Of a stretch of DNA of 64,000 bases, positions 5,968-61,425 are shown piece by piece. The stretch covers positions 2,908 to 66,907 of the forward strand of contig JAZFYD010000243.1 of NCBI GenBank assembly GCA_036443405.1, given 5' to 3'. The notes under the pieces were generated by a model. That model did no database searches and was not told the origin of the DNA. It was given only the letters and a program-made list of their open reading frames with translations. The DNA is from Planctomycetota bacterium (GTDB taxonomy: Bacteria; Planctomycetota; PLA2). Position 1 is the stretch's first letter. Every line of letters starts with the position of its first letter. Position numbers and translations under genes: made by a program.

Positions 5968-6030
5968 TTTGCCCAACGGCTTACCCCGTTGGAGCCACTT
6001 CTTGCTCAACGGCTTACGCCGCTAGAGGCT
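5968..6030 (+). repeat. two tandem degenerate copies of the dispersed palindromic unit TTGCCCAACGGCTGACGCCGTTGGAGCC, upstream of prkA
   Basis: Copy 1 is tttgcccaacggcttaccccgttggagcc and copy 2 is ttgctcaacggcttacgccgctagaggc. The consensus core CCAACGGC-TGAC-GCCGTTGG is a perfect 8-bp inverted repeat. Confidence 0.7.
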
Positions 6031-9185: not shown

Positions 9186-9315
9186 CCCCAACGGCGCCAG
9201 CCATTGGGCGAAAAACCAAGAGCACTGAGTCCATCTCAAACTGCTCGAACGCACTGGCTCCAACGGCGTCAGCCGTTGGGCAAACAACACCGCGGCGTCA
9301 GCCGTTGGGCAAACT
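9186..9315 (-). repeat. composite copy of the dispersed repeat: CCATCTCAAAC terminus, a full palindromic unit, a half unit, and an extra degenerate unit
   Basis: ccccaacggcgccagccattgggcg at 9186, then ccatctcaaac at 9231-9241. ctccaacggcgtcagccgttgggcaaac runs 9258-9285, and ggcgtcagccgttgggcaaac 9294-9313. It lies between puuD-like and the HEAT gene. Confidence 0.8.
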
Positions 9316-10092
9316 ACACTGGCGGGAATTGGACGCCACAGACCCCCGTGCGACTTCCGCCGCTTTGACAAATGCATCAAAAACCGCGCGGCTGGCGGAA
9401 TCTCCGGCCTGCGCCGAGATCTCGGGATGCCATTGGAGCGCGATGCAGAACGACGCGGCCGGGTCCTCGATCGACTCGATGAGGCCGTCCGTGACGGTCC
9501 GCGACGAAACGACCAGGCCTTCGCCCAACAACCGGCAGGCCTGGTGGTGAAACGAGTTCACCTCGAGCGGGCCGGCGCCGACGATGTCCGCGAGGCGGGT
9601 GTCCGGCGCCACATCGACGGTGTGCCAGGTCCGATCGCCCAGCGTCTTTTGTACGTGCGCCACGGTGGAGTCCGTTTGGCTGACGAGATCCTGATAGATG
9701 TCCCCGCCGAACGCGACGTTCAGGATCTGGATTCCGCGGCAGACCCCCAACATCGGCAAGTCGCACTCCCGGGCGGCCCGGGCCAGTTCGATCTCGAAGA
9801 GGTCCCGCCGTTCGTCCACCAAATCGACGCTCGCGTGGGGCTCCTCGCCGAAGAGCTGGGCCTTGGGATCGTCCCCGCCGCTCAGCAGCAGACCGTCGCA
9901 AAGCTCCACGTATTCCGCAGCCCGCGAAGGATCCTCGACGGTCGGCAGAATGACCGGCAGCGCGCCGGCCGCCTCCAGAACCTCGGTGTAGGCGCGCAAA
10001 AGCGTCTCGGCCTCGCGCAGCGCTTTGGAGCCCTGCATGAGGACGGTGCGGGCCGTGACACCCACGACGGGCCGTTTCCTGTCGGCGACCAT
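9298..10092 (-). CDS. gamma-glutamyl-GABA hydrolase family class I glutamine amidotransferase (peptidase C26, PuuD-like)
   Basis: Motifs RPVVGVTA, LLLSGGDDP, the catalytic Cys in GVCRGIQILNVAFGG, SFHHQA and WHPE are all present. The N-terminal 263 aa of track ORF 9298..10881 are antisense read-through of the GHMP kinase gene. The start is ATG at 10092. Confidence 0.75.
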   Translation of the reverse strand: MVADRKRPVVGVTARTVLMQGSKALREAETLLRAYTEVLEAAGALPVILPTVEDPSRAAEYVELCDGLLLSGGDDPKAQLFGEEPHASVDLVDERRDLFEIELARAARECDLPMLGVCRGIQILNVAFGGDIYQDLVSQTDSTVAHVQKTLGDRTWHTVDVAPDTRLADIVGAGPLEVNSFHHQACRLLGEGLVVSSRTVTDGLIESIEDPAASFCIALQWHPEISAQAGDSASRAVFDAFVKAAEVARGSVASNSRQCSLPNG

Positions 10093-13946: not shown

Positions 13947-13992
13947 TCCAACTGCGTAGGCCGTCGGCCAAGGTAAACGCGCCCACCTGAAC

Positions 13993-14076
13993 CCATCTCA
14001 AACGCCACGATTGGACGGCTTCAACGGCGTCAGCCGTTGAGCCAGCATCACTGCAGCCGTTGGGCCAGAAACACTG
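13993..14076 (-). repeat. composite dispersed repeat copy between smc and pgpA
   Basis: ccatctcaaac...cttcaacggcgtcagccgttgagcc...gcagccgttgggccagaaac. The architecture and spacing match the 9.2 kb copy. Confidence 0.8.
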
Positions 14077-21426: not shown

Positions 21427-23922
21427 ATGCCTCGCCTGCTCCTGATCGTGACCCTCGGACTCGTCCTCTTCATGGTGATGGGCAAGGGCTGCCAAAGCGG
21501 CCCCAAGCTCCCGCCTGCGCTCGGTCAGCGCAATCTGCAGCCCTGGGATCCGGCGACCGTTGTCGAACTGAGATCCGGCGACACCAAGCTGCAACTCGAC
21601 GCCGACGGCCGCATCCTGTCGCTTGTGGTGAACGGTAAGACCCTGATTCAGCCGGCACCGCTTCACAACCGGCCGCTCGCGATCGTCGAACGGCGGGCCA
21701 ACGGCGAGCTTGTTTTGCTGCCCGGCTTCGCACAGGACGAAGCGGCCGACGAAAAGAGCATCACGTACATCTCGAAGATCCGCAGCCAGCGGCTAGAGAA
21801 ACACATCGCGATCGATGACGACGGCAACGGAATCACCGTTTCGCTGAAGGCCCACGGGTTCGAGTTCGACAGCGGCGGATTCGAGCTGACCGCGCTGGGC
21901 GGCGTGCCCATGTCCCAGGACGAAGACGGGCCGGTCACGGGTCTTGTGGAATGGACGAAACAAAGGGCCCAGATCTACCCGTTTGCGCGGCTGGCCAAGG
22001 ATCAGGCCGAAAAGCGCATGGTGCAGGAGCGCCGGCTCAGGAACGAAAGGAAGGTCGAAGAGCCCGGCCCCGGCCGGTATCAGCGCATCAAGCGCGATCT
22101 CGACATGATCGGCGCCCTGGGCACCGGCGGTTTGCTGAAGTTCGAGGGCATCACCGGAGTTCGAGCCGTCAACACCCTCGCGTATCGCGCCGTGCGGGAC
22201 GGGTCGCCGGAACGGGACATGGAATCCTGGATCTCGCTCGACCACGAAGCGGGCAAACTCGAGGCGAGCTTCAGGATCACGTGGGCCTCGTACGAGTCCT
22301 TCGCGAACGAGCACGCCCATCTGCCCGCGTTCCGCAAAGGCAACTCCACGGAGCACGTCCTCGAAAACGGCACGATGCGCATCGTGTTTTCGGACCGCGG
22401 CGCCGGGATCGCGCGCGCACACCTGAAGAAGTACGCGCTGGGCGCGGACGACGAACTCTCGCCGGAAACGTGGATTCCAATCGTGCGCGAGGAGATCCCT
22501 GCGAGCGAACGCGCCCTCACGCTCAAGTTCCGCTCGATCAGCCTGGCCCAGTTCGGCGGCCTCGATTCGGTGACCTCGATTTGGAAGGTGGTCGAACAAA
22601 GCGCGAGGCACATCCGTTTCCGCTTGGAAGCCGATAACGGCTGGCGCGTCGAGAAGACCGTCACGCTGCCGGGCGAGGACGAATACGACCTGTGGGTTGA
22701 TATCGAAGCGCGCAAGCCGGACGGGGAGAGGGACGAGACGTTCAAGTTCACGCTCGTCGGCCCCTCGGGCATCTACATGACCGACGCGTACCGCGGCGTC
22801 TTCGGCGCGGACCCGCCGCAGGGGCTCTTGCTCGAGCGACCCGGCGAGACCGAAAACGAGTCGATCGACGACATCCTCGAGGAGCCCCTCGTGAGCGACT
22901 ACTCGACCGAGCAGCGCGGGCGCTGCGAAGCGGTCGCGATCGGCGGCGCGTACTTCCTTGGTGCGCTCATCACCGAAGCCACGTTCGACGCCAACGACCA
23001 GCCGCGCGGCGTCGTCACGCGCGCTGCGATCACCGACGTGGAACTCAGGAAACCGATCCCCCGCGTGAGCGAGGACGAGCCACTCAAATCGTCGCTTCGT
23101 GGCGAGGTCTCCTGCTTGCTCCGATTCGATCAGGGCCGCGCTGAGACGAGGTTCCAGCTCTATCTCGGGCCGCGGCGCGTGGAGAACCTCGATCCGCTCG
23201 GCATCCGCCGCGCCATCGACTTCGGATTCTTCTCAGCCATCGGCCGCGTTCTGTTGTGGCTGATGAAGTTCTTCGCGGGCATCTTCAACAGCTACGGCGT
23301 CGCGATCATCTGCATGACGCTGTTCATCCGTGCGCTGCTCTTCCCGGTGTCGTACAAGACGCAGCTGAGCATGCAGCGTTACTCGCGGCGCATGCAGAAG
23401 ATCAAGCCGATCCTGGAGAGGCTGCAGGAACAGTACAAGTCGAATCCGCAGCGCCTGAACCAGGAACGCATGAAGGTGATGCGCGAGCACAAGATCGGTC
23501 TGCCGCTCGGCTGCCTCACGCTGTTCCTGCAGATCCCGATCTGGATCGCACTCTTCTCGAGCCTGCGCGTCGAGTTCTCGCTGCGACACCAACCGTTTCT
23601 GTGGGCCAACGATCTGGCGATGCCCGACGCGTTGTTCCAACTCCCGTTCTGGCCGGGTTCGTTCAACGCGCTCCCGCTCCTGATGCTCGGCCTCTGGGTC
23701 TGGCAGCAGAAGGCGACGCCGACGCCGGCCAGCGACGATCCCCAAGTGCAGGCGCAGATGAAGATGTTGAAGTTCATGCCGTTCATGTTCTTCATCTTCC
23801 TCTACAAGTATGCGTGCGCGCTGAGTGTGTATATGTGCATCTCCAGCGCCTGGGGCATCGTCGAGGGCAAGATGGTCCGCCGAGCAATCAAGCGGTTGGA
23901 CGACGCACCAGCGGCCGGGTAG
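21427..23922 (+). CDS. yidC: membrane protein insertase YidC (long periplasmic domain)
   Basis: 831 aa with an N-terminal TM. The C-terminal 60 kDa insertase core is present (FIRALLFPVSYKTQLSMQRY...KMLKFMPFMFFIFLYKYACALSVYMCISSAWGI). GGAG lies 6 nt upstream of the ATG. Confidence 0.9.
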   Translation: MPRLLLIVTLGLVLFMVMGKGCQSGPKLPPALGQRNLQPWDPATVVELRSGDTKLQLDADGRILSLVVNGKTLIQPAPLHNRPLAIVERRANGELVLLPGFAQDEAADEKSITYISKIRSQRLEKHIAIDDDGNGITVSLKAHGFEFDSGGFELTALGGVPMSQDEDGPVTGLVEWTKQRAQIYPFARLAKDQAEKRMVQERRLRNERKVEEPGPGRYQRIKRDLDMIGALGTGGLLKFEGITGVRAVNTLAYRAVRDGSPERDMESWISLDHEAGKLEASFRITWASYESFANEHAHLPAFRKGNSTEHVLENGTMRIVFSDRGAGIARAHLKKYALGADDELSPETWIPIVREEIPASERALTLKFRSISLAQFGGLDSVTSIWKVVEQSARHIRFRLEADNGWRVEKTVTLPGEDEYDLWVDIEARKPDGERDETFKFTLVGPSGIYMTDAYRGVFGADPPQGLLLERPGETENESIDDILEEPLVSDYSTEQRGRCEAVAIGGAYFLGALITEATFDANDQPRGVVTRAAITDVELRKPIPRVSEDEPLKSSLRGEVSCLLRFDQGRAETRFQLYLGPRRVENLDPLGIRRAIDFGFFSAIGRVLLWLMKFFAGIFNSYGVAIICMTLFIRALLFPVSYKTQLSMQRYSRRMQKIKPILERLQEQYKSNPQRLNQERMKVMREHKIGLPLGCLTLFLQIPIWIALFSSLRVEFSLRHQPFLWANDLAMPDALFQLPFWPGSFNALPLLMLGLWVWQQKATPTPASDDPQVQAQMKMLKFMPFMFFIFLYKYACALSVYMCISSAWGIVEGKMVRRAIKRLDDAPAAG

Positions 23923-23932
23923 CGCGGGGATG

Positions 23933-24084
23933 CCCTTATCCTTACCCTTGTCCTAGACCCTCTACCCTTTTCCTTTTCCTGCTCCCTCCGCCCTTCCCCC
24001 AGGGCTAAGAACAAGGGGCACAGGAAAAGGGTCGAGTGCAAAGGGTCTAGGACAAGGACTAGGGCAAGGGCAGGGGGTGCGCCT
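23933..24084. other. long imperfect CT-rich/GA-rich inverted repeat (about 50-nt arms) between convergent yidC and radC; candidate bidirectional terminator or structured RNA
   Basis: The left arm is cccttatccttacccttgtcctagaccctctacccttttccttttcctg. The right arm is caggaaaagggtcgagtgcaaagggtctaggacaaggactagggcaagggcaggggg. The core cccttgtcctagaccct and agggtctaggacaaggg are perfect reverse complements (17 bp). Confidence 0.6.
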
Positions 24085-27374: not shown

Positions 27375-28099
27375 TCGGTGACGCGGATCTCGACGCGCCG
27401 GTTCCTCCACTGGTTCCGTTCGCTGTCGTTGGGAACACGCGGCTGATGCGGCCCGAAGCCGATGACAGCCAAGCGACCCGCATCCACACCTCCGTGGGTT
27501 GTCAGGTACTCCCAAACCGACAGGGCGCGGTGCGCGGACAGCTCGATGTTGCCGAGCGGATACTGCTTCAACGTCTCCGGCTTGGTGACTTTCACGTTGT
27601 CCGTGTGACCCTCGATGCTGACACGTCCCGTACCGCCCTTGAGCGCGGCCGCGACTTTGGCGAGCGCGTTGTTGCCCTCGGCGGACAGGACGGCGGAACC
27701 CTTGGCGAACAGAACCGCCTCGCGCAGAACGAGCCGGTACCCGTCAGGCGCACGCTCCACCTCCACGTCCGCGTCGCCCTGGAACTCAGCAAGGACCTTG
27801 CGCACGTGCGCGCTGATCTCGCCCTTGACCTCCTCGACAGTGGCTTTGGTTTTCTCGTGTTTCTCGACCTCGACCTTCAAGCGACCGACTTCCTGCTTCA
27901 ACGCGGCGCGATCGGTTGTCAAACGGTCCACGTGGAGACTCAACTCTTCGTTGGTCCCCTCGAGGTTTTCGATCGTCTGCTGAAGCGCCTCGTCGCTCGG
28001 AGTCGATATGCAGGCAGGTAGAACGGCCGCAACAAGCGCGGCGAGTAAAGGGCTCCAGCGGCGTGAGCCGTTGGGCCAGAAAAATCGGCGGCAGGACAC
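27368..28099 (-). CDS. OmpA/MotB-family lipoprotein (peptidoglycan-associated)
   Basis: The lipobox is LPACIS, followed by a coiled-coil segment. The OmpA C-terminal domain has SIEGHTDNV...SAHRALSV...NRRVEIRV. GTG at 28099 has AAGGAG 5 nt upstream. Codons 5-15 are encoded by a copy of the dispersed palindromic repeat. Confidence 0.8.
   Translation of the reverse strand: MSCRRFFWPNGSRRWSPLLAALVAAVLPACISTPSDEALQQTIENLEGTNEELSLHVDRLTTDRAALKQEVGRLKVEVEKHEKTKATVEEVKGEISAHVRKVLAEFQGDADVEVERAPDGYRLVLREAVLFAKGSAVLSAEGNNALAKVAAALKGGTGRVSIEGHTDNVKVTKPETLKQYPLGNIELSAHRALSVWEYLTTHGGVDAGRLAVIGFGPHQPRVPNDSERNQWRNRRVEIRVTEN
28053..28084 (-). repeat. single degenerate palindromic unit embedded in the 5' coding region of the OmpA-like gene
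   Basis: ctccagcggcgtgagccgttgggccagaaaaa. On the coding strand it encodes FWPNGSRRWS within the signal-peptide n-region. There is no alternative in-frame start downstream of it. Confidence 0.65.
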
Positions 28100-31227: not shown

Positions 31228-31357
31228 TTGCCCAACGGCTGACGCCGTTGGAGCCTCTGGTCTGGACGTTTTGATGAGGCGGCGAGGGGTTCCGGGTTTG
31301 CGCTTTGCCCAACGGCTGACGCCGTTGGAAGCCACGCAGGCGCTGCCTTTGAGATGG
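31228..31357 (+). repeat. two full forward-orientation units plus a TTTGAGATGG terminus (mirror of the composite element)
   Basis: ttgcccaacggctgacgccgttggagcc runs 31228-31255, a perfect consensus. tttgcccaacggctgacgccgttggaagcc runs 31304-31333. tttgagatgg is at 31348-31357. Confidence 0.85.
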
Positions 31358-31514
31358 ATGCGTGCCTGCTTGCGCCGCGGGCGGCGCCGTACAACTCCGA
31401 CGAGGATCAAGTTCCGCGCCGGCGACTGGACAACGCCGGACGCTCGAACCCCATCGCTCCACGCTATATGCGGGGCCGGTCACCCGATCATTCCTCAGAC
31501 GCTGCGAACGCACC

Positions 31515-31580
31515 GCTCCAACGGCGTCAGCCGTTGGGCCAACAACACTGCGGCGTCAGCCGTTGGGCCAACCGCACTAC
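31515..31580 (-). repeat. reverse-orientation composite copy (full unit plus half unit) abutting the pilC stop codon
   Basis: gctccaacggcgtcagccgttgggccaacaacactgcggcgtcagccgttgggccaaccgcactac. It closely parallels the 9258-9315 copy. Together with 31228-31357 it forms an inverted pair flanking about 155 bp. Confidence 0.85.
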
Positions 31581-32927: not shown

Positions 32928-34673
32928 TCAGAGCGTCTGCATGGTCTCCCGGAGGACCTCCTCAACGGTGGTCGACTGGTCGAAAATGGCCAACATGCCG
33001 CTCTCGCGGAGGGTGCGCATGCCTTGCTCACGGGCCCGCGTCCGAATCTGCGAGATCGGCGCGCCATCCATGATTTGGTCCTTGATCGCGTCGTTCACGA
33101 TCATGAACTCAAACAGCGCCAGACGGCCCTTGTAGCCCGTTCCATTGCATTTCTCGCACCCCTTGCCGTAGGCGAATTTCTTCCCGGCGGCCAGGTCCCG
33201 CTCGAGCTCCAACTCGCGCATGACCTCGAGGCTGGGCTCGTAAAGCTCCTTGCAGTCCGGGCAAATTCGGCGCACCAGGCGCTGGGCGATGACGGCTTCC
33301 AAGGTCGCGGCGATCAGAAACGGCTCGGCGCCGACGTCCACCAAACGGACGATCGCAAGCGGCGCGTCGTTGGTATGCAGGGTCGAAAACACGACGTGGC
33401 CGGTCAGTGACGCCTCGATGACGATCTGCGCCGTGTCCTTGTCGCGAATCTCGCCGACGAGGATCATGTCCGGGTCCTGGCGAAGGATCGAGCGCAGGCA
33501 CGCGGAGTAGGTGACCCCGATATCCTCGTTGATCTGCACCTGAACCACGCCCTCGAGGTCGTATTCGACCGGATCCTCGGTCGTGATGATCTTGACCGAG
33601 ACGTCGTTCGCGTGGTTGAGGCCGGCGTAGAGCGTCGTCGTCTTGCCCGAGCCTGTCGGGCCGGTCACCAGGATGACGCCGTGCGGAAGGTTGATGAGTT
33701 CCTTGAATTTTTTGACTTCGTCGTCGCGAAGGCCGATCTGGTCCAGCTCGAGGCTGACCACCGAGCGGTCGAGAACGCGCATCACGCATGATTCACCGAA
33801 CATCGTCGGTAGCGTGGAGACACGCATGTCGACCGGGCGGCCGCCGATCGCGAGGTCGATGCGGCCATCTTGCGGCACGCGGGTCTCGGAGATGTCGAGA
33901 CCGCTCATGACCTTTACGCGGCTGATCAACGCGGTCGCCAAGTGCAGCGGCGGCGCTTCGAGTTCGTAAAGCACGCCATCCACGCGGTAGCGGATCTTGA
34001 ACTCGTCCTCGAACGGCTCGAGGTGGATGTCCGACGCGCGGTCGCGGATCGCCTGGTAGAGGATGTAGTTGAGCAGCTTGCGGACCGGCGCCGAGTTCGC
34101 CATCTCCTCGGCGTCATCGAGGTCGGTCACGGCTCCGACGCCGATGCGCGTGGACTTGCGCTGCCGCGGCGCGGCGGCATCCTCCTCGATCTCCTTGAGA
34201 ATCGAGGACATCACCTGTTCCTCGCGGCCGTACGCCTTCTCGATGGCCGCCATGATCTGGTCCGCAGGCGCCACGACACCCTTCACCTCGCAGTTCGCGG
34301 TGAACCGGATGTCGTCGAGTGCGGACTTGTTCATCGGATCCGCCATCGCGACGGTGAGCGTGGTCCCGTCGAACAAAACGGGCATGAACTGGAACGGCCG
34401 CGCGATGGCCTCGTCAACCTTCGCGATGGCGTCTTTCTGCGGCTCTAACGTCGAAAGATCAATGACCTCCATGCCCGACTGCGTTCCGAGCGCCATCTGG
34501 AGTTGGGACTCGTCGATGTGGCCCTGACGAACGAGGATCTGGCCGATCTGGCCGCCGTCTTTTTTCTGCGTCTGCAGCGCTTCCTGAACCTGCCCCTCGT
34601 GGATGACACGCATGTCCTTGAGGACCTGGCCGAGCAGCTTCTTACGTACTGAGTGACGAGTGGGTGCAGCCAT
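32928..34673 (-). CDS. pilB: GspE/PilB-family secretion ATPase with N-terminal tandem MshEN-like (c-di-GMP-binding type) motifs
   Basis: Walker A GPTGSGKTT, Asp box, Walker B and the CxxC...CxxC tetracysteine are present. The N-terminus carries LLGQVLKDMRVIHEGQVQEALQTQ and QIGQILVRQGHIDESQLQMALGTQ, a tandem 24-aa MshEN-type motif. The ATG lies 2 nt after the pilT stop. Confidence 0.9.
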   Translation of the reverse strand: MAAPTRHSVRKKLLGQVLKDMRVIHEGQVQEALQTQKKDGGQIGQILVRQGHIDESQLQMALGTQSGMEVIDLSTLEPQKDAIAKVDEAIARPFQFMPVLFDGTTLTVAMADPMNKSALDDIRFTANCEVKGVVAPADQIMAAIEKAYGREEQVMSSILKEIEEDAAAPRQRKSTRIGVGAVTDLDDAEEMANSAPVRKLLNYILYQAIRDRASDIHLEPFEDEFKIRYRVDGVLYELEAPPLHLATALISRVKVMSGLDISETRVPQDGRIDLAIGGRPVDMRVSTLPTMFGESCVMRVLDRSVVSLELDQIGLRDDEVKKFKELINLPHGVILVTGPTGSGKTTTLYAGLNHANDVSVKIITTEDPVEYDLEGVVQVQINEDIGVTYSACLRSILRQDPDMILVGEIRDKDTAQIVIEASLTGHVVFSTLHTNDAPLAIVRLVDVGAEPFLIAATLEAVIAQRLVRRICPDCKELYEPSLEVMRELELERDLAAGKKFAYGKGCEKCNGTGYKGRLALFEFMIVNDAIKDQIMDGAPISQIRTRAREQGMRTLRESGMLAIFDQSTTVEEVLRETMQTL

Positions 34674-35740: not shown

Positions 35741-37419
35741 TAACTCGTCTCCAAAATAGCGCCGGCCACGCGCAGAATCTCGTCAACGGAGGTCTCTCCG
35801 GCCAGGATCTTCCGTACCCCGTCTTCGCGCAGCGTGATCATCCCGCATGACGCACGGGCTTGTTCGCGAAGCTCGATGGCCGATGCGCCGTTGAACGTCA
35901 GGTCGCGCATCCGGCTATCCATCTCGAAGAGTTCGAAGATGGCGCGCCGGCCGCGATACCCCTCGTGGCGGCACTCCGCGCACCCTACGGCTTTGTAGAG
36001 CGTCCGGTCGCCGATCATCTCGGACGTGAGTCCGAGCCCGCGCAGCTTGATCTTGTCGTGCTCCCACGGCGCCTTGCAGTTGTCACAGAGCATGCGGACG
36101 AGGCGCTGGGCCATCACCGCGAGCACCGCCGTGGACACCAGGAACGGTTTCACTCCGATGTCGATGAGGCGCGTGATCGCGGAGGTCGCATCATTGGTGT
36201 GAAGGGTGGAAAACACCAAGTGGCCCGTCAGCGCGGCCTGAATCGCGATCTCCGCCGTCTCCATGTCGCGGATCTCACCGACCAGGATGATGTTGGGCGC
36301 CTGGCGCAGCATCGAACGCAGAATGCGCGCGAAGGTGAGGCCGATGTTGTGGCGCACCTCACACTGGTTGATGCCCTTCAAGTGGTATTCCACCGGGTTT
36401 TCGGCGGTGATGATCTTGACGTTGGGCTTGTTGAGCATGCCCAGCGCGGCGTAGAGCGTCGTCGTCTTGCCCGAGCCGGTCGGCCCCGTGACCAGGAAAA
36501 CGCCGTTCGGCTTGCGGATGATGCGGTCGAAGCGTGCGTGATCCTCGGTGTGAAAACCGAGCTTTGCCAGCCCGACCAGGGCGGTCTCCTTGTCCAGGAG
36601 ACGCATGACGAGCGATTCGCCATGAGTCGCGGGCAGCGCCGAGACACGAACGTCGATGGGACGGCCCAGCAAATTCACGCCGATGCGGCCATCCTGCGGC
36701 TTGCGCTTTTCGGCGATGTCCATCCTCGCCATGATCTTCAATCGGCTGAGAACCGAGCCCTGGATGTCTTTCGGAAGCGATTTCGCCTCGTGACAGAGCC
36801 CGTCCACGCGGAATCGGATCCGCACGCGGTCCACCATTGGTTCGACGTGGATATCCGATGCCCGGGCCCGCAGGGCCTCCTCCAGCATCTGGTGCACGAG
36901 GCGGATGATCGGTGCGTCTTCGTCGTCGTCGTCCGACGGCGGGCCGCTGGCCACCGCTGCGGCACCCTTGGCTTCGACCTTCTCGCCGACGCCGTAGTAC
37001 TCGGCTTTGGCGTTGGTCTGGGCCGACGGGGTCGTCAGCGCGACGCGCACGTCCAGATTGAGGACGAATTGGAGCCCGTCGGCCTGATAAACGGCCGCGG
37101 GGTCTCGAATGGCGAGGATCAGCTGCTTAGCGCCCTGCTTCTTCACAGGGACGACGTCGTACTCCTCGACGGTGCTCTTTTCGACCAGTGCGATCGTCTC
37201 GGCGGGGAGTTTGACCTTGGAGAGGTCGATAAAGGGGAGCTTGTTCTGGCGGCAAAGGGCGCGCGCAACCTGCTCCTCGCTGAGCATGTTGAGTTCGACG
37301 AGCGCTTCCCCGATGCGGGATCCCGTGCGCTTGGCATGCACAAGGGCGTCGTCGATCTTGGCCTGCGTGACCAAGTTCATCTCGAGGAGGATCTCCCCGA
37401 GTCTCTTTCTCGGCTCCAC
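35740..37419 (-). CDS. second GspE/PilB-family secretion ATPase with MshEN-like N-terminal motifs
   Basis: Walker A GPTGSGKTT and the tetracysteine CDNC...CAEC are present. The N-terminus has RLGEILLEMNLVTQAKIDDALVHA and RIGEALVELNMLSEEQVARALCRQ. GTG at 37419 has GGAAGGAG 7 nt upstream. Confidence 0.9.
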   Translation of the reverse strand: MEPRKRLGEILLEMNLVTQAKIDDALVHAKRTGSRIGEALVELNMLSEEQVARALCRQNKLPFIDLSKVKLPAETIALVEKSTVEEYDVVPVKKQGAKQLILAIRDPAAVYQADGLQFVLNLDVRVALTTPSAQTNAKAEYYGVGEKVEAKGAAAVASGPPSDDDDEDAPIIRLVHQMLEEALRARASDIHVEPMVDRVRIRFRVDGLCHEAKSLPKDIQGSVLSRLKIMARMDIAEKRKPQDGRIGVNLLGRPIDVRVSALPATHGESLVMRLLDKETALVGLAKLGFHTEDHARFDRIIRKPNGVFLVTGPTGSGKTTTLYAALGMLNKPNVKIITAENPVEYHLKGINQCEVRHNIGLTFARILRSMLRQAPNIILVGEIRDMETAEIAIQAALTGHLVFSTLHTNDATSAITRLIDIGVKPFLVSTAVLAVMAQRLVRMLCDNCKAPWEHDKIKLRGLGLTSEMIGDRTLYKAVGCAECRHEGYRGRRAIFELFEMDSRMRDLTFNGASAIELREQARASCGMITLREDGVRKILAGETSVDEILRVAGAILETS

Positions 37420-38287: not shown

Positions 38288-40912
<2,625 letters not shown>

Positions 40913-40962: not shown

Positions 40963-41538
40963 ATGGCCGAGACGATCTGGAAGTACATCGCGATCACGAG
41001 TGTTGCTGCGCTGGGCATCGTCCTGCTGGTCGGGCAGGCGGCACCCGCACAGAAAGTTCTCGAACTCAGGGAACTGAGGTTGGTCGACGAGGAAGGGAGA
41101 GTTCGTGCGCGGCTCTGGACGGGACTGGGCGCTACCAAATTCGAACTCACCGCTCCGCAAGGCAACAACTTGTTCTATTTGAGCGTCGGGAAGAATCAAT
41201 GCTCGATGAAGCTTGGCCCTCTAGGAGGTGGTCTAAAGGTGAGCACCATTGGGGAGAACGCGAGACTTCAGCTCCAGGGCGCCGGGGGGTTCGTGAATTT
41301 GGATGCCGACGAGGACAGCAAACTCACGGTGCAATCCAACAAGATGCGCGTGGCAATCAGCACTTCAAAGGAAGGTGGGGGGGTCGGCGCAATGAGATCC
41401 GACTTCGCGGTTGGACCGGGTGAGCTGGAACGTGCGTTGCTCTACGTCTGGGCCAAGGAACGGACCGCATCGATCGAACTCCAAGACAAGGAGGGCAAGA
41501 CGACTTGGGCCCAGGGACTGCCGGGAAGGGAGAAATGA
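40963..41538 (+). CDS. hypothetical secreted protein
   Basis: ATG at 40963 is preceded by GGAGGTGGAG. It has a signal peptide MAETIWKYIAITSVAALGIVLLVGQAAPAQ. The first 75 codons of track ORF 40738..41538 overlap the ppdK 3' end. Confidence 0.5.
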   Translation: MAETIWKYIAITSVAALGIVLLVGQAAPAQKVLELRELRLVDEEGRVRARLWTGLGATKFELTAPQGNNLFYLSVGKNQCSMKLGPLGGGLKVSTIGENARLQLQGAGGFVNLDADEDSKLTVQSNKMRVAISTSKEGGGVGAMRSDFAVGPGELERALLYVWAKERTASIELQDKEGKTTWAQGLPGREK

Positions 41539-41770
41539 GCACCGGCGCGGGGTTTGAACTCGGAGAGAACCGTTGGCTGCAAGTTCACCGTCACCGGAAG
41601 CTCGCCGCATCAGACCACGGACGGTTGCTGTTGCCGATGAGGTGCCAGGTGGCGCGGCGATCAGGCTGTGGTTGCCGCATTCCGTGGTCTGTGGCGCCGT
41701 CTTACCAGGCACCGCTGCTTTGCTGCCCGCACCGTTGTTTGTGTTACGAGCCGCGGAGGGGTCGCGCGGG

Positions 41771-41815
41771 TGTGGGATGTTCCCATTCGCAACACGACCA
41801 CCCGCGGTCGGTGCC
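41771..41815 (-). repeat. second repeat family, copy B (about 85% identical to 45941-45990)
   Basis: The reverse complement reads ggcaccgaccgcgggtggtcgtgttgcgaatgggaacatcccaca. The other locus reads accgatcgcgggtggtcgtgctgcggatgcgaaacacgcacaccacaccc. It can fold as CGCGGGTG(T)GG-loop-CCACCCGCG. Confidence 0.55.
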
Positions 41816-42084
41816 TGGTAAGCGGAGGGGACCGAGGCAAGTGAGCCCGAACGCGCGATAGCCGGAAAACGATCCAGCGAGTCGTTTTCCGGTGTGACCG
41901 AGTTCCCAACATCGCGTAGCACGCGCGCAGGAGAACCGAAACTGCGCACGACGTGCCACCTGGCACCTTGCACAACCAACGCGTCCGAAGTCCCGCGGGA
42001 CGGACAACCCGCCCCGGTGGGAGTCCCGAACTCGGAGAGAGCGGTTCCCGACGAGTTCCCGCGCCCAGTTGCGGGGGGCGCCCC

Positions 42085-42090
42085 TATAAT
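42085..42090 (+). promoter_or_regulatory. consensus -10 hexamer TATAAT 10 nt upstream of the yebC ATG (possible leaderless transcript)
   Basis: cccTATAATcccattcctATG. There is no SD and no -35 at canonical spacing. Confidence 0.35.
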
Positions 42091-42099
42091 CCCATTCCT

Positions 42100-42849
42100 A
42101 TGGCTGGACACTCACACTGGGCCGGGATCAAACACAAGAAGGCCGCGACGGACAAGAAGCGCGGCAAGATCTTCTCCAAGATCGCCAACCTGATCATCTC
42201 GGCCGCCCGAAACGGCGGCGGCGACCCGGAGACCAACCTCGCGCTGCGGTACGCGATCGAGAAGGGGCGCGCCGCGAACATGCCGCGCGACACGATTGCG
42301 CGCGCGGTCAAAAAAGGAACCGGCGAGCTGGCCGGCGAGGAGATCCACGAGCTCACCTACGAGGCGTACGCGCCGGGCGGCGCCGCGCTTCTGATCCACA
42401 CGATCACGGACAACGTGAACCGGACCGGCGCGGACGTGCGCAGCATGCTCGAAAAACGCGGCGGCACGCTCGGCAAGCAGGGCAGCGTCTCCTGGAACTT
42501 CGAGCGCAAGGCGCTGTTCACGGTCGCGACGAGCGCGATCGGCGAGGAAGAGCTGTTCGACCTCGCTCTGGAGGCCGGCGCCGAGGACGTCTCGGACGAA
42601 GGCGAGTTCTATTCCATCACCGCCCCGCCGGAGTCGTTCGCGACACTCGCGGCGGCGCTGGAAGCCAAGGGCCTCAAACCCGACGCGAGCGAGTTGACCG
42701 ACCTGCCCAAATCGCGGGTCATGCTGGAAGCGGACGCAGCGCGCAAGGTGCTCGCGCTCATCGAAACGCTCGAGGACCACGAGGATGTGCAGACGGCGAT
42801 CACGAACGCCGACCTGCCGGACGAGGTCCTGGCGGAACTCGGCTCTTGA
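42100..42849 (+). CDS. yebC: YebC/PmpR-family transcriptional regulator
   Basis: Starts MAGHSHWAGIKHKKAATDKKRGKIFSK, the canonical YebC N-terminus. A TATAAT lies 10 nt upstream of the ATG. Confidence 0.9.
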   Translation: MAGHSHWAGIKHKKAATDKKRGKIFSKIANLIISAARNGGGDPETNLALRYAIEKGRAANMPRDTIARAVKKGTGELAGEEIHELTYEAYAPGGAALLIHTITDNVNRTGADVRSMLEKRGGTLGKQGSVSWNFERKALFTVATSAIGEEELFDLALEAGAEDVSDEGEFYSITAPPESFATLAAALEAKGLKPDASELTDLPKSRVMLEADAARKVLALIETLEDHEDVQTAITNADLPDEVLAELGS

Positions 42850-44645: not shown

Positions 44646-45805
44646 CAGCTGTCGCCGAGGCGGGATAACAGGTTCTTCGCGCGGGCGTGCCCCGGCTGCG
44701 CGCCCAACGCCTCCCCAAGCAACGCCTTGGCCTCGCGGTTCAGATACCGCGCGGCACACCAGTGCGCGAGATCGACCTGCGCGTCCACGTCCCCCTTCTT
44801 CAACGCCGCATGCGATTGCGCGGCGCTGCGCTCCAACGCCACCCGGTCGAACACGCCGCGCAGCTTGGCGCGCCCGATTTCATACAAGAGACCATCGGGT
44901 GCCGTTCCTTCGACGACGATCCTGTCCCAGCGCGTCACCTTGAGCGGAAAGAACAGGCCGCTTCTCAGTTCCAAGAGCTGGGGAAACTCAGCGACGCTCG
45001 CGAACATGGCCGGCGGCAGCGCGCCGACCTCCGCGCGTTCGGTTTTCTTGGGTCTTATCGATGCCGTCTCCGCGGACCCCGTCTCGGGCGCAGACATACC
45101 GCCCCCCATGGGATCGTCCATCCCGCCCCCGCGCGACGGGTCGCCGGCCGAATCCGGAGCGTCGAGACCCGTTGCTGTGTCCTTCGCCCCCATCGCGTTC
45201 TCGGCCTCTTCGTGCGTCGACGAACTTCCGCCGTCTTCTTGAGAACCGCCAGGCCGTCCGACCAAAACGCCCACCAAGACACCAACGGTCAGAAGCAACA
45301 GCCCACCAACACCGACCGCGATCCACTTCCACTTCGCCGCATCGCCGCCCGACGGCGCGGACGGCGCGGATGCGTGCGTCACCGGGCGCGCCACGCGGGC
45401 GGGCGGGTGAGGTTCGCTCGCGGGCTTTTGTTCAACGGCGGGCGGCGGCAGGGGCGGCAGAGCCGTCGCGGGCGCCGCTGCCGCGGGAGCCCCCACGGGT
45501 GCGGGCGGCGGCGTGTGATGGAACGTAACCACCGCCTGGCCGAAGTGGACAAAGTCCCCGGCCTCGACCGTGCTCGGCATCTGCGCCGTCAGCGCCGCAC
45601 CGTTGATCCGAGTTCCGGTGGTGGAGCCGAGGTCCGTGATCTTGACGAGGTCCCCATCCACCTCGACAAGCGCATGCCGTCGCGAAACGGTGGAGTGCTC
45701 GAGCAGCAAATCACTGACGGCCGCGTCGCGCCCCACGACGGTAATCCGCCGCTCGAGCTCGAGCACGAGCCGCCCTTGAGGTCCATCCCAAACGAGAACC
45801 GCCAT
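44645..45805 (-). CDS. FHA-domain membrane protein
   Basis: The N-terminal FHA domain is MAVLVWDGPQGRLVLELERRITVVGR...VSRRHALVEVDGDLVKITDLGSTTGTRING. A Pro-rich linker, a TM helix and a C-terminal domain follow. The start could alternatively be ATG at 45835. Confidence 0.7.
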   Translation of the reverse strand: MAVLVWDGPQGRLVLELERRITVVGRDAAVSDLLLEHSTVSRRHALVEVDGDLVKITDLGSTTGTRINGAALTAQMPSTVEAGDFVHFGQAVVTFHHTPPPAPVGAPAAAAPATALPPLPPPAVEQKPASEPHPPARVARPVTHASAPSAPSGGDAAKWKWIAVGVGGLLLLTVGVLVGVLVGRPGGSQEDGGSSSTHEEAENAMGAKDTATGLDAPDSAGDPSRGGGMDDPMGGGMSAPETGSAETASIRPKKTERAEVGALPPAMFASVAEFPQLLELRSGLFFPLKVTRWDRIVVEGTAPDGLLYEIGRAKLRGVFDRVALERSAAQSHAALKKGDVDAQVDLAHWCAARYLNREAKALLGEALGAQPGHARAKNLLSRLGDS

Positions 45806-45940
45806 TGGATGACAAGGATAATAGATCCTTGGCATCCACCTCGGCCTTGGCCTCGGCCTCGTGCGCCGGACCCCGCCTCTCTCGGTCCCCCGGCCGCTCC
45901 CCTCGCCCCTAATCGACGCGACCGCGCACCCAGCCCGCGG

Positions 45941-45990
45941 ACCGATCGCGGGTGGTCGTGCTGCGGATGCGAAACACGCACACCACACCC
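45941..45990 (+). repeat. second repeat family, copy A, just downstream of rpsI
   Basis: accgatcgcgggtggtcgtgctgcggatgcgaaacacgcacaccacaccc. This is homologous to the 41.8 kb copy in opposite orientation. Confidence 0.55.
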
Positions 45991-46027
45991 ACGGACGAAG
46001 ATCGAATTGGAAACGGACGCTCGCCGA

Positions 46028-46441
46028 CTAACGCTTGCTGAACTGGAAGCGACGTCGCGCACCGCGCTGGCCGTACTTCTTGCGCTCTTTCATGCGGGCA
46101 TCGCGGGTCAGGAACCCGCCATCTCGCAGCGTCGGCTCGGTCTCGGCGTCGATGCGCAGTAGCGCGCGGGCGATGCCAAGGCGGACGGCACCGGACTGAC
46201 CGAGCGGGCCACCACCGTTGACGTTGACCTTGACGTCGTACTTGCTCTCGGCTTCGGTCGCGCGCAGCGGGCCGAGAACCTGGTTCTGCATGTCGACGGT
46301 CGGGAAGAACTCTTTGAACGCCTTGCCGTTGAGCGTGATCTCGCCGGTGCCGGGGAACAGACGGACCCGGGCGACCGCGGTCTTGCGGCGGCCGGTGCCC
46401 CAAACGAAGTTCGCTTTGTCGTTAGTCTTCTGCTCGCTCAT
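46028..46441 (-). CDS. rpsI: 30S ribosomal protein S9
   Basis: 137 aa ending KKYGQRGARRRFQFSKR, a diagnostic S9 C-terminus. The start overlaps the rplM stop. Confidence 0.95.
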   Translation of the reverse strand: MSEQKTNDKANFVWGTGRRKTAVARVRLFPGTGEITLNGKAFKEFFPTVDMQNQVLGPLRATEAESKYDVKVNVNGGGPLGQSGAVRLGIARALLRIDAETEPTLRDGGFLTRDARMKERKKYGQRGARRRFQFSKR

Positions 46442-60482: not shown

Positions 60483-61425
60483 CCTGGGCCTCCTCAACGT
60501 CCTTCCGCTTACACACACGAAGCTTGGCCGAACGTGCTCTCGGATTGCCGCGCGCTTCTTCCCATGCCGCGCGCACGCATTTCTTCGTGAGCACCTCGAG
60601 AGCTTCGTGATCCTTGAAGTAGTGCTTCACGATCCGGTCTTCGCCGGAGTGAAACGAAATCACGGCGACCAGGCCACCTGAGCGCACGCGCCTGGCCGCG
60701 GCATCCAGCCCGCGGCGCAATTCTCCCAACTCGTCGTTGACAGCCATGCGCAGGGCCTGAAACGTGCGGGTGGCGTTGTCGATCTTGCTGCGGCCCCTCA
60801 CGGCCCGACGCACAATGCTCGCCAACCGCCCGGTCGTCGTAATCGGTTCTTCGCGCTGCTCCGCCGCGATCGCCGCCGCGACGCGGCGCGAGGAACGCTC
60901 GCCGCCGAGTTCGAAGATCACGTTCCCAAGGTCCTTTTCATCCAAGCGCGCGATCAACTCCGCGGCGGACTCGCCTTGGGACTGATCCATGCGCATGTCG
61001 AGCGGACCGTCGTGCCGGAAACTGAATCCGCGCTCGCCGCGATCCAACTGCGGACTCGAAACACCAAGATCGAACAGGATCGCGTCGGGGGTCGCGTCTT
61101 CGGCATCGAGGACCGCGTCGATCTTCGAGAAACGCGCGTGGTGCAACGACACGCGGGAGCCGTACTCCGCCAGGTTGCGTTCGGCGCTCTCAAGACTGTC
61201 GCGATCCCGGTCGATGCCAATCACCCGCGCGTCCTCCGTTCGCTCCAACGCCGTCAGTCGTTGGGCCGACTCTTCCGAACCTGATTCCGAACCCGTACCG
61301 CCTTGGCTCTTCAGGAACGCGCCCGCATGCCCTCCGGCGCCGACCGTGCAGTCGACCAGCAGTGAAATGCCCGGCACGGCAAGGAACCCCAGCACCTCCG
61401 CAAGAAGGACCGGTTTGTGTTCCAA
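60475..61425 (-). CDS. rsmH: 16S rRNA (cytosine1402-N4)-methyltransferase RsmH (MraW)
   Basis: (M)EHKPVLLAEVL...LVDCTVGAGGHA...FDLGVSSPQLD...ISFHSGEDRIV are conserved RsmH blocks. The start is TTG. Confidence 0.9.
   Translation of the reverse strand: MEHKPVLLAEVLGFLAVPGISLLVDCTVGAGGHAGAFLKSQGGTGSESGSEESAQRLTALERTEDARVIGIDRDRDSLESAERNLAEYGSRVSLHHARFSKIDAVLDAEDATPDAILFDLGVSSPQLDRGERGFSFRHDGPLDMRMDQSQGESAAELIARLDEKDLGNVIFELGGERSSRRVAAAIAAEQREEPITTTGRLASIVRRAVRGRSKIDNATRTFQALRMAVNDELGELRRGLDAAARRVRSGGLVAVISFHSGEDRIVKHYFKDHEALEVLTKKCVRAAWEEARGNPRARSAKLRVCKRKDVEEAQDA

Follow-up and report, generated by a model that had tools for sequence, protein, structure and literature searches.

The region analyzed belongs to a 64,000-nucleotide stretch of DNA from an uncultured Planctomycetota bacterium (the window, to which all coordinates refer). 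Genes for pyruvate phosphate dikinase (PPDK, 38288-40912) and for a protein of 191 aa (40963-41538) are followed by a gene-free region, which ends at the ATG of the YebC/TACO1 gene at 42100. All three genes reside on the + strand, as does the MoxR gene downstream of YebC, while the HemD, FHA protein and rpsI genes found further on are all on the minus strand. A 46-kb contig of GCA_044232445.1 is 99.94% identical to the window over 6.75 kb, and does not differ from it at any position of the gene-free region. The 191-aa gene (+ strand) is preceded by a GGAGGTG ribosome-binding site and encodes a protein with an N-terminal hydrophobic segment. Present in the window and missing in lineages B and C, this gene is part of the same variable PPDK-YebC spacer, which measures 1187 bp in the window. 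In a homologue search its own sequence was the only identical match, and a full HMMER scan with the protein gave weak distant matches only (E 1e-4 to 1e-7), to proteins of about 185-219 aa and to one repeat protein of 1060 aa. The GC content of the gene (0.57-0.60) is lower than that of its surroundings. The dip attributed by the earlier note to the gene-free region sits here, the region itself having the same GC content as its flanks (0.63-0.67).

That the region is free of genes holds true. No coding signal was detected, GC being flat over the three codon phases (0.62-0.70, vs. a GC3 of ~0.9 in YebC); no gene is called there in the NCBI record, none of the six ORFs of the region has a Pfam match, and a scan for tRNA and tmRNA genes gave nothing. 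A 248-aa ORF spanning the region on the minus strand could mark a frameshifted or decayed protein-coding gene. Yet none of 2302 word-sharing candidates from a collection of 5.8 billion proteins matched this ORF at E <= 0.01; the search was aimed also at spurious ORFs called over other copies of the element, and none was found. A decayed gene, which would have to do without a period-3 GC signal, a Pfam match or a homologue at that threshold, and in which indels relative to the homologous sequence L163 are not multiples of three, is scarcely credible.

The interval 41519-42065 is overall one large imperfect palindrome, a rod-like structure of ~520 bp in which a direct repeat of ~77 nt (U_L and U_R) flanks a core of ~390 bp. 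The core contains imperfect outer arms of ~36 nt, an inner pair of 14 bp, and a number of hairpin modules that are complete in themselves. As described in the earlier note, four copies of the motif GGTGCCWGGT alternate in orientation, namely A (GGTGCCAGGT, 41641-50, +), B (41704-13, -), C (41810-19, +) and D (41958-67, -). Copies A and D are carried by the left (41618-41659) and right (41949-41987) arms of the outer inverted repeat, which is longer than the 12 bp originally claimed, 14 bp being perfectly paired (41640-53 / 41955-68) and 20 nt matching at 90%. The alignment of the left 120 nt (41539-41660), which include the left arm, to the reverse complement of the right 120 nt (41949-42070) scores 67, vs. 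18.9 ± 4.9 for shuffles. Copies B and C lie in the arms of the inner inverted repeat (41701-41714 / 41809-41822), also real, with 14 perfect base pairs and 94 nt between the arms; the arm carrying copy B is kept in L163 and L166.

Smaller features are interspersed with these. A local inverted repeat of 19 nt (41603-21 / 41681-99, 84%) encloses copy A, so that it is in competition with the outer helix; in L163 it is degraded, 8 of 11 core pairs being left as read from the alignment. The small hairpin GCGGCGATCA / TGGTTGCCGC (41654-41678) is an MFE helix in both lineages, and is kept in L163, where 9 of 10 pairs are invariant. A 45-nt module (41769-41812, + strand) is the reverse complement, at 84% over 45 nt, of 45941-45984 (minus strand) in the FHA-rpsI spacer, so that the copy of a second repeat family reported previously at this site is genuine. 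An insert of ~100 nt (41846-41947), found in the window clade only and missing in lineage B, holds two hairpins: GCGCAG / CTGCGC (41925-41947), and a perfect 11-bp stem with a 9-nt loop. The latter exists as the earlier note had it, but 2 nt to the right of the position given there, at 41862-41892. U_L (41519-41595, + strand) overlaps by its 5' end the last codons of the 191-aa gene. U_R (41986-42065, + strand) includes the palindrome GTCCCGCGGGAC (41990-42001) and the 7-bp pair GAACTCG / CGAGTTC (42028-34 / 42053-59). The exact 13-mer GAACTCGGAGAGA is present twice, at 41556-41568 in U_L and 42028-40 in U_R. U_L is matched by an nhmmer profile built on the copies of the repeat (E 1.9e-15); the two copies found within L163 are 89% identical over 55 nt.

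Perfect inverted 10-mer pairs number 14 in the 561 nt of the region, vs. 0.39 ± 0.86 in 1000 dinucleotide shuffles, and a perfect inverted repeat of at least 14 bp arises in 0.2% of dinucleotide shuffles. In the window this density of inverted repeats is surpassed only by an unrelated repeat-family cluster at about 31.0-31.6 kb. GGTGCCWGGT has four exact matches in 64 kb, all in the gene-free region, 0.13 being expected; at least four matches were obtained in none of 100 shuffles, and the rest of the window is at the chance count when one mismatch is allowed. GGTGCCWGGT, the A-B segment and the U repeat have no further copy in the remaining 63 kb of the window or in 1.1 Mb of other Planctomycetota loci; profile searches (nhmmer) with the latter two and with the 45-nt module revealed no additional copies in the window and all the loci fetched. 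The centre-to-centre spacings of the motif copies (41641-41967) are 63, 106 and 148 bp, those measured in L163 62 and 107 bp. Each is near a whole number of 10.5-bp helical turns, maybe by coincidence, yet as expected of protein sites on the same face of the DNA.

Other repeats reside in the window. A dispersed REP-like family, CCAACGGC-N4-GCCGTTGG with GTCA or TGAC as loop, unrelated in sequence to the element, counts about 10 copies in 64 kb, at 5968-5997, 9188-9325, 13948-14054, 28051-28083, 31228-31572 and 61245-61264. Its copies are often arranged as tandem or inverted doublets (see the 25-nt perfect inverted pair 31230-54 / 31515-39), and the whole has the look of a true REP/REPIN-type family in this genome. 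A long imperfect hairpin (23931-24072; arms of 47 nt, 74% complementary, separated by a 48-nt spacer) is found just past an ORF ending at 23922, one arm being pyrimidine-rich (CCCTT/CCTT runs). Two segments of ~340 nt each (33351-33686 and 36175-36510), 74% identical and lying 2.8 kb apart as direct repeats, are probably paralogous coding sequences in neighbouring minus-strand genes.

The right-hand boundary of the palindromic element is set by the YebC core promoter (42069-42099, + strand), which lies outside the element and consists of TTGCGG... followed by TATAAT (42085-42090), with the ATG 9 nt further on. All relatives examined (L082, L163, L165-L173) have a -10-like box, reading TATAAT or TAGAAT, at 6-9 nt upstream of the YebC start codon, and it is kept even where the PPDK-YebC spacer is reduced to 21-51 bp. 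A ribosome-binding site is absent. The conserved arrangement suggests that the YebC mRNA may be leaderless or near-leaderless across the clade, with a putative start at ~42097-42100. Because the -10 box adjoins the ATG, the palindromic block would lie upstream of the YebC transcription start, and on this ground a 5' leader or riboswitch of YebC was rejected.

YebC-anchored scans of GTDB genomes and JGI metagenomes yielded best relatives with 56-65% identity and no usable comparison; in L082, the closest of them, a divergent gene is found about 65 bp upstream of YebC. Closer contigs, and a 90%-identity cluster, came from a protein search. The length of the PPDK-YebC spacer varies widely among relatives. 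It measures 21 bp in L169 (YebC 75% identity), 51 bp in L171 and L172 (70%), 460 bp in L168 (71%), where the sequence is unrelated, and 176 bp in L165 (94%), unrelated as well except for the ~30-bp core promoter, the only stretch common to L165 and the window. In the three contigs of lineage B (L162, L163 and L164; YebC 95% identity) the spacer is 523 bp, homologous to the element and devoid of the 191-aa gene. L166 (spacer DNA 98% identical) and L167 (YebC 98% identical) are of the window type, their contigs beginning inside the element. The element is missing in L165, L168, L169, L171, L172 and L082 (YebC 65-94% identical), and is confined to strains with a YebC identity of about 95% or higher. 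At 4-fold degenerate sites of YebC, L163 and L165 are identical at 0.86 and either of them is identical to the window at 0.76-0.80; the element resides in L163, and not in L165. As judged from spacer lengths and from presence and absence across these relatives, the element, polymorphic and restricted to its lineage, has recently come to occupy a spacer which was ancestrally very short.

Where the element is present, its parts are conserved to different degrees. The window and L163 are 80% identical over 41586-41818, about 87% in the A-B segment (read from the alignment), and 90% over 41962-42099, vs. 70-80% at 4-fold degenerate sites of the flanking genes. The right-hand block 41962-42099, which holds U_R, is above neutral-site identity, and L163 has copies A and B, as well as the core of copy C, unaltered. 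Conservation of some parts above the neutral level suggests either some constraint or a recent exchange between strains. L166 is a mosaic, with 10 mismatches to the window in the first 45 nt (window 41596-41640), where it is similar to lineage B, and 1 mismatch in the following ~480 nt. The contigs of L162, L166 and L167, from three independent assemblies, all end inside the element. The mismatch cluster and the assembly breaks point to recombination between strains, or to assembly chimeras formed at the repeat.

The same comparisons bear on a role of the region as cis-regulatory DNA, in which the GGTGCCWGGT boxes and the U repeat would be putative sites for a protein that controls YebC or its upstream neighbour, perhaps through a DNA loop. 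In 64 kb the motif is restricted to the region, L163 has copies A, B and C without any change, the spacings of 63, 106 and 148 bp are near whole helical turns, and U_R, located beside the promoter, is conserved above the neutral level. Copy D, however, is split by a 30-nt hairpin insertion in L163 and altered in L167, where its centre reads CCGGG; moreover, L165 and the distant relatives keep the -10 box, and L165 also the ~30-bp core promoter, all without boxes, so that the element cannot be required for YebC expression. A known candidate regulator is also wanting, and a regulatory function of the boxes is deemed improbable. A sigma-54 promoter at copy D was discarded upon inspection, the GG-GC spacing being wrong.

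Differences between the window and L163 are modular. Besides the ~100-nt hairpin-bearing insert present in the window and missing in L163, two 30-nt hairpins are found in L163, one located after GGTGCCTGG of copy C, the other splitting copy D. The two are ~77% reverse-complement copies of each other, and differ by a compensating change from T/A to A/T in the stem (read by eye); a third, diverged copy resides in the FHA-rpsI spacer of lineage B. This spacer hosts also the second of the just two copies of the 45-nt module detected by nhmmer, 4 kb away from the first; the segment of L163 corresponding to the module is strongly diverged. The L165 spacer, unrelated to the element, is in turn 74% similar over 84 nt to 45822-45904, within the FHA-rpsI spacer of the window. 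The FHA-rpsI spacer (window 45767-46028, L162 4200-4359, L165 4822-4901) is also variable among lineages (262 bp vs. 160 bp). Since a different module is common to the same two spacers in each of three lineages, the simplest reading, with a few kb seen per genome, is that the modules are small dispersed repeats.

The window sequence folds into a single rod closed end to end on both strands, with z-scores of -4.3 (+ strand) and -4.6 (- strand). The z-score of the L163 version is -4.9, those of the unrelated L165 and L168 spacers +0.2 and -0.3, respectively; foldability is therefore a property of the element. The nested topology, with A paired to D and B to C, is found in the L163 fold although copy D is split. 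Such data may fit a lineage-specific, rod-like structured RNA of about 400-520 nt, either transcribed independently or forming the 3' end of the transcript of PPDK or the 191-aa gene, and functioning via the A:D and B:C helices. Strong folds are formed in two lineages ~25% apart at neutral sites, the nested topology has survived the splitting of copy D, 4-fold sites are somewhat less conserved than the A-B segment and the right-hand block, and a few one-sided changes from G-C to G-U pairs fit the + strand.

The changes accumulated between the two lineages argue otherwise. When L163 is placed on the MFE structure of the window, 96 pairs are kept, 11 are changed on one side, 4 on both sides, and 37 are broken. 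Paired and unpaired residues change at similar rates (0.231 and 0.269), and the 4 double changes, counted among only 3-4 sequences, three of them distinct, are within the range of controls (2.0 ± 1.1 in shuffled, up to 5 in slid ones). The antisense strand folds equally well. The Rfam comparison proposed in the earlier note, run with Rfam 15 at gathering thresholds, gave nothing, and at E <= 10 returned two chance matches only, both to eukaryotic families. The scan for sigma-70 promoters and terminators detected nothing promoter-like in the region; its one terminator-like match falls inside YebC, on the minus strand. The element is moreover missing in L165, at about 94% YebC identity, and in all more distant relatives. 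The large structured RNA suggested by the earlier note has no test in its favour among Rfam, strand bias, pair breakage, covariation and distribution, the test being a weak one with three distinct sequences; we consider an RNA of this kind unlikely. The element resembles the large non-coding RNAs of Rfam in its length of several hundred nt, its nested long-range helices and its strong folding z-score, and differs from them in lacking an Rfam match, covariation and strand bias, and in being narrowly conserved. Because it is found in a few close relatives only, and hairpin modules are gained and lost, the region looks like palindromic repeat-element DNA rather than a conserved structured RNA.

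Repeat elements of various types were considered for comparison. A REPIN consists of two inverted copies of a conserved motif, separated by a looser spacer; REPINs form hairpins in single-stranded DNA or mRNA, and are sometimes arranged in higher-order clusters (PMC3116915). REP and REPIN families number tens to hundreds of copies and are associated with a RAYT transposase (PMC3116915; PMC3733652). The element is reminiscent of REPINs and BIMEs in its alternating short motifs, its inverted doublets (A-B, 73 nt; B-C, 122 nt), and the doublet of 30-nt hairpins of lineage B (PMC3116915; PMC3733652). Like them, it is located between genes, is hypervariable among strains, and forms higher-order clusters. 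Unlike them, its motif is found at a single locus in 64 kb, no RAYT is seen among the annotated neighbours, and a REPIN is far smaller than the block of ~520 bp. Among bacterial MITEs (for instance ERIC, Correia, Chunjie and QMITE elements), size variants are generated by internal indels, and copies decay toward REP-like sequences (PMC10969869; PMC3184786). The element is likewise small, non-coding and intergenic (~370 bp between the outer arms, ~520 bp with the U repeats), differs in presence among strains, and has imperfect terminal inverted repeats (41618-53 / 41955-87) with a 14-bp perfect core. In contrast to MITEs, it has neither a short target-site duplication nor an identifiable parent IS, and no other full copy is found in the window or in related loci; its arms are best conserved at the inner and not at the outer end, and the flanking direct repeat of 77 nt is atypical.

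A short target-site duplication was looked for beside either arm pair by reading the flanks, and none was seen; the ~77-nt direct repeat is found further out instead. No transposase remnant, RAYT, integrase, recombinase or other mobility gene is evident among the annotated neighbours. Blastn searches against plasmid and phage collections gave no match, and exact-motif scans of viral contigs only single chance matches without extended similarity. The alternative raised in the earlier note, that the inverted repeats are those of decayed mobile elements, fits better than a structured RNA. It is in line with the presence and absence of the element among strains, the gain and loss of modules, and the occurrence of module copies nearby, though in the 64 kb a short target duplication, a transposase remnant and further copies of the main motifs were not seen. 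Specific candidates were rejected. An IS66-type GTAAGCG end at copy C has, upon inspection, an inconsistent orientation, and an IS200/IS605-type insertion beside TTAC at copy B lacks a supporting subterminal hairpin. An integron attC site or gene cassette does not fit either, the size being far above 57-141 bp and a homologous element without the gene being found in L163.

The direct repeats call to mind a small integrated element in a remnant state, with U_L and U_R corresponding to attL/attR-like repeats and the core to what was left after an internal deletion, as in a cis-mobilisable element without integrase. The ~77-nt repeat flanks the core in both lineages, close strains differ in the presence of the element, and a lineage-specific gene of lower GC content lies alongside. 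Against this, no integrase or mobility gene is found in the neighbourhood, no empty site with a single U was encountered, L165 being entirely without U, the core is just ~390 bp, and the 191-aa gene falls outside the repeats; a remnant of this type is quite unlikely.

On balance, and with modest confidence, we lean towards the view that the region is non-coding DNA, assembled from small modules of palindromic repeats which built up between PPDK and YebC in a single narrow lineage. The closest likeness appears to be to MITE, REPIN/BIME or ERIC elements, as a best reading in which membership of any of these classes is not established. Small palindromic repeats are active in this genome, since a second dispersed palindromic family, with about 10 copies in 64 kb, is present. 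As units able to form hairpins, the modules would spread, or come and go, at the level of DNA; the routes could be transposition in trans (as for MITEs and REPINs), template switching, or recombination between strains. They may be tolerated because the spacer sits upstream of YebC's own promoter, itself placed against the start codon. REP and ERIC elements serve elsewhere as 3' barriers, terminators or insulators. Upon read-through from PPDK or from the 191-aa gene, the long hairpin would, as a likely but putative side effect, act similarly as a 3' barrier, terminator or insulator before the YebC promoter. The 77-nt flanking direct repeat and the U_R block, conserved above the neutral level, leave room for an att-like remnant, a regulatory region or a long-hairpin RNA. 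There is also a slim chance that the ~520-nt rod is itself the functional unit, foldability being kept while modules turn over, either as a new long-hairpin RNA or as a new non-autonomous fold-back element with ~77-nt direct repeats.

For the study of similar loci the region provides a caution, folding energy and nested repeats alone being insufficient to call a structured RNA. The element marks a strain-variable hotspot that breaks metagenome assemblies. To our knowledge, such palindromic elements are little described in uncultured Planctomycetota lineages. If the favoured reading, that of accumulated palindromic repeat modules, is correct, the PPDK-YebC spacer would be a further case of small palindromic repeat DNA reshaping intergenic spacers, at a locus which lets strains with and without the element be compared for the insulation of the downstream promoter.
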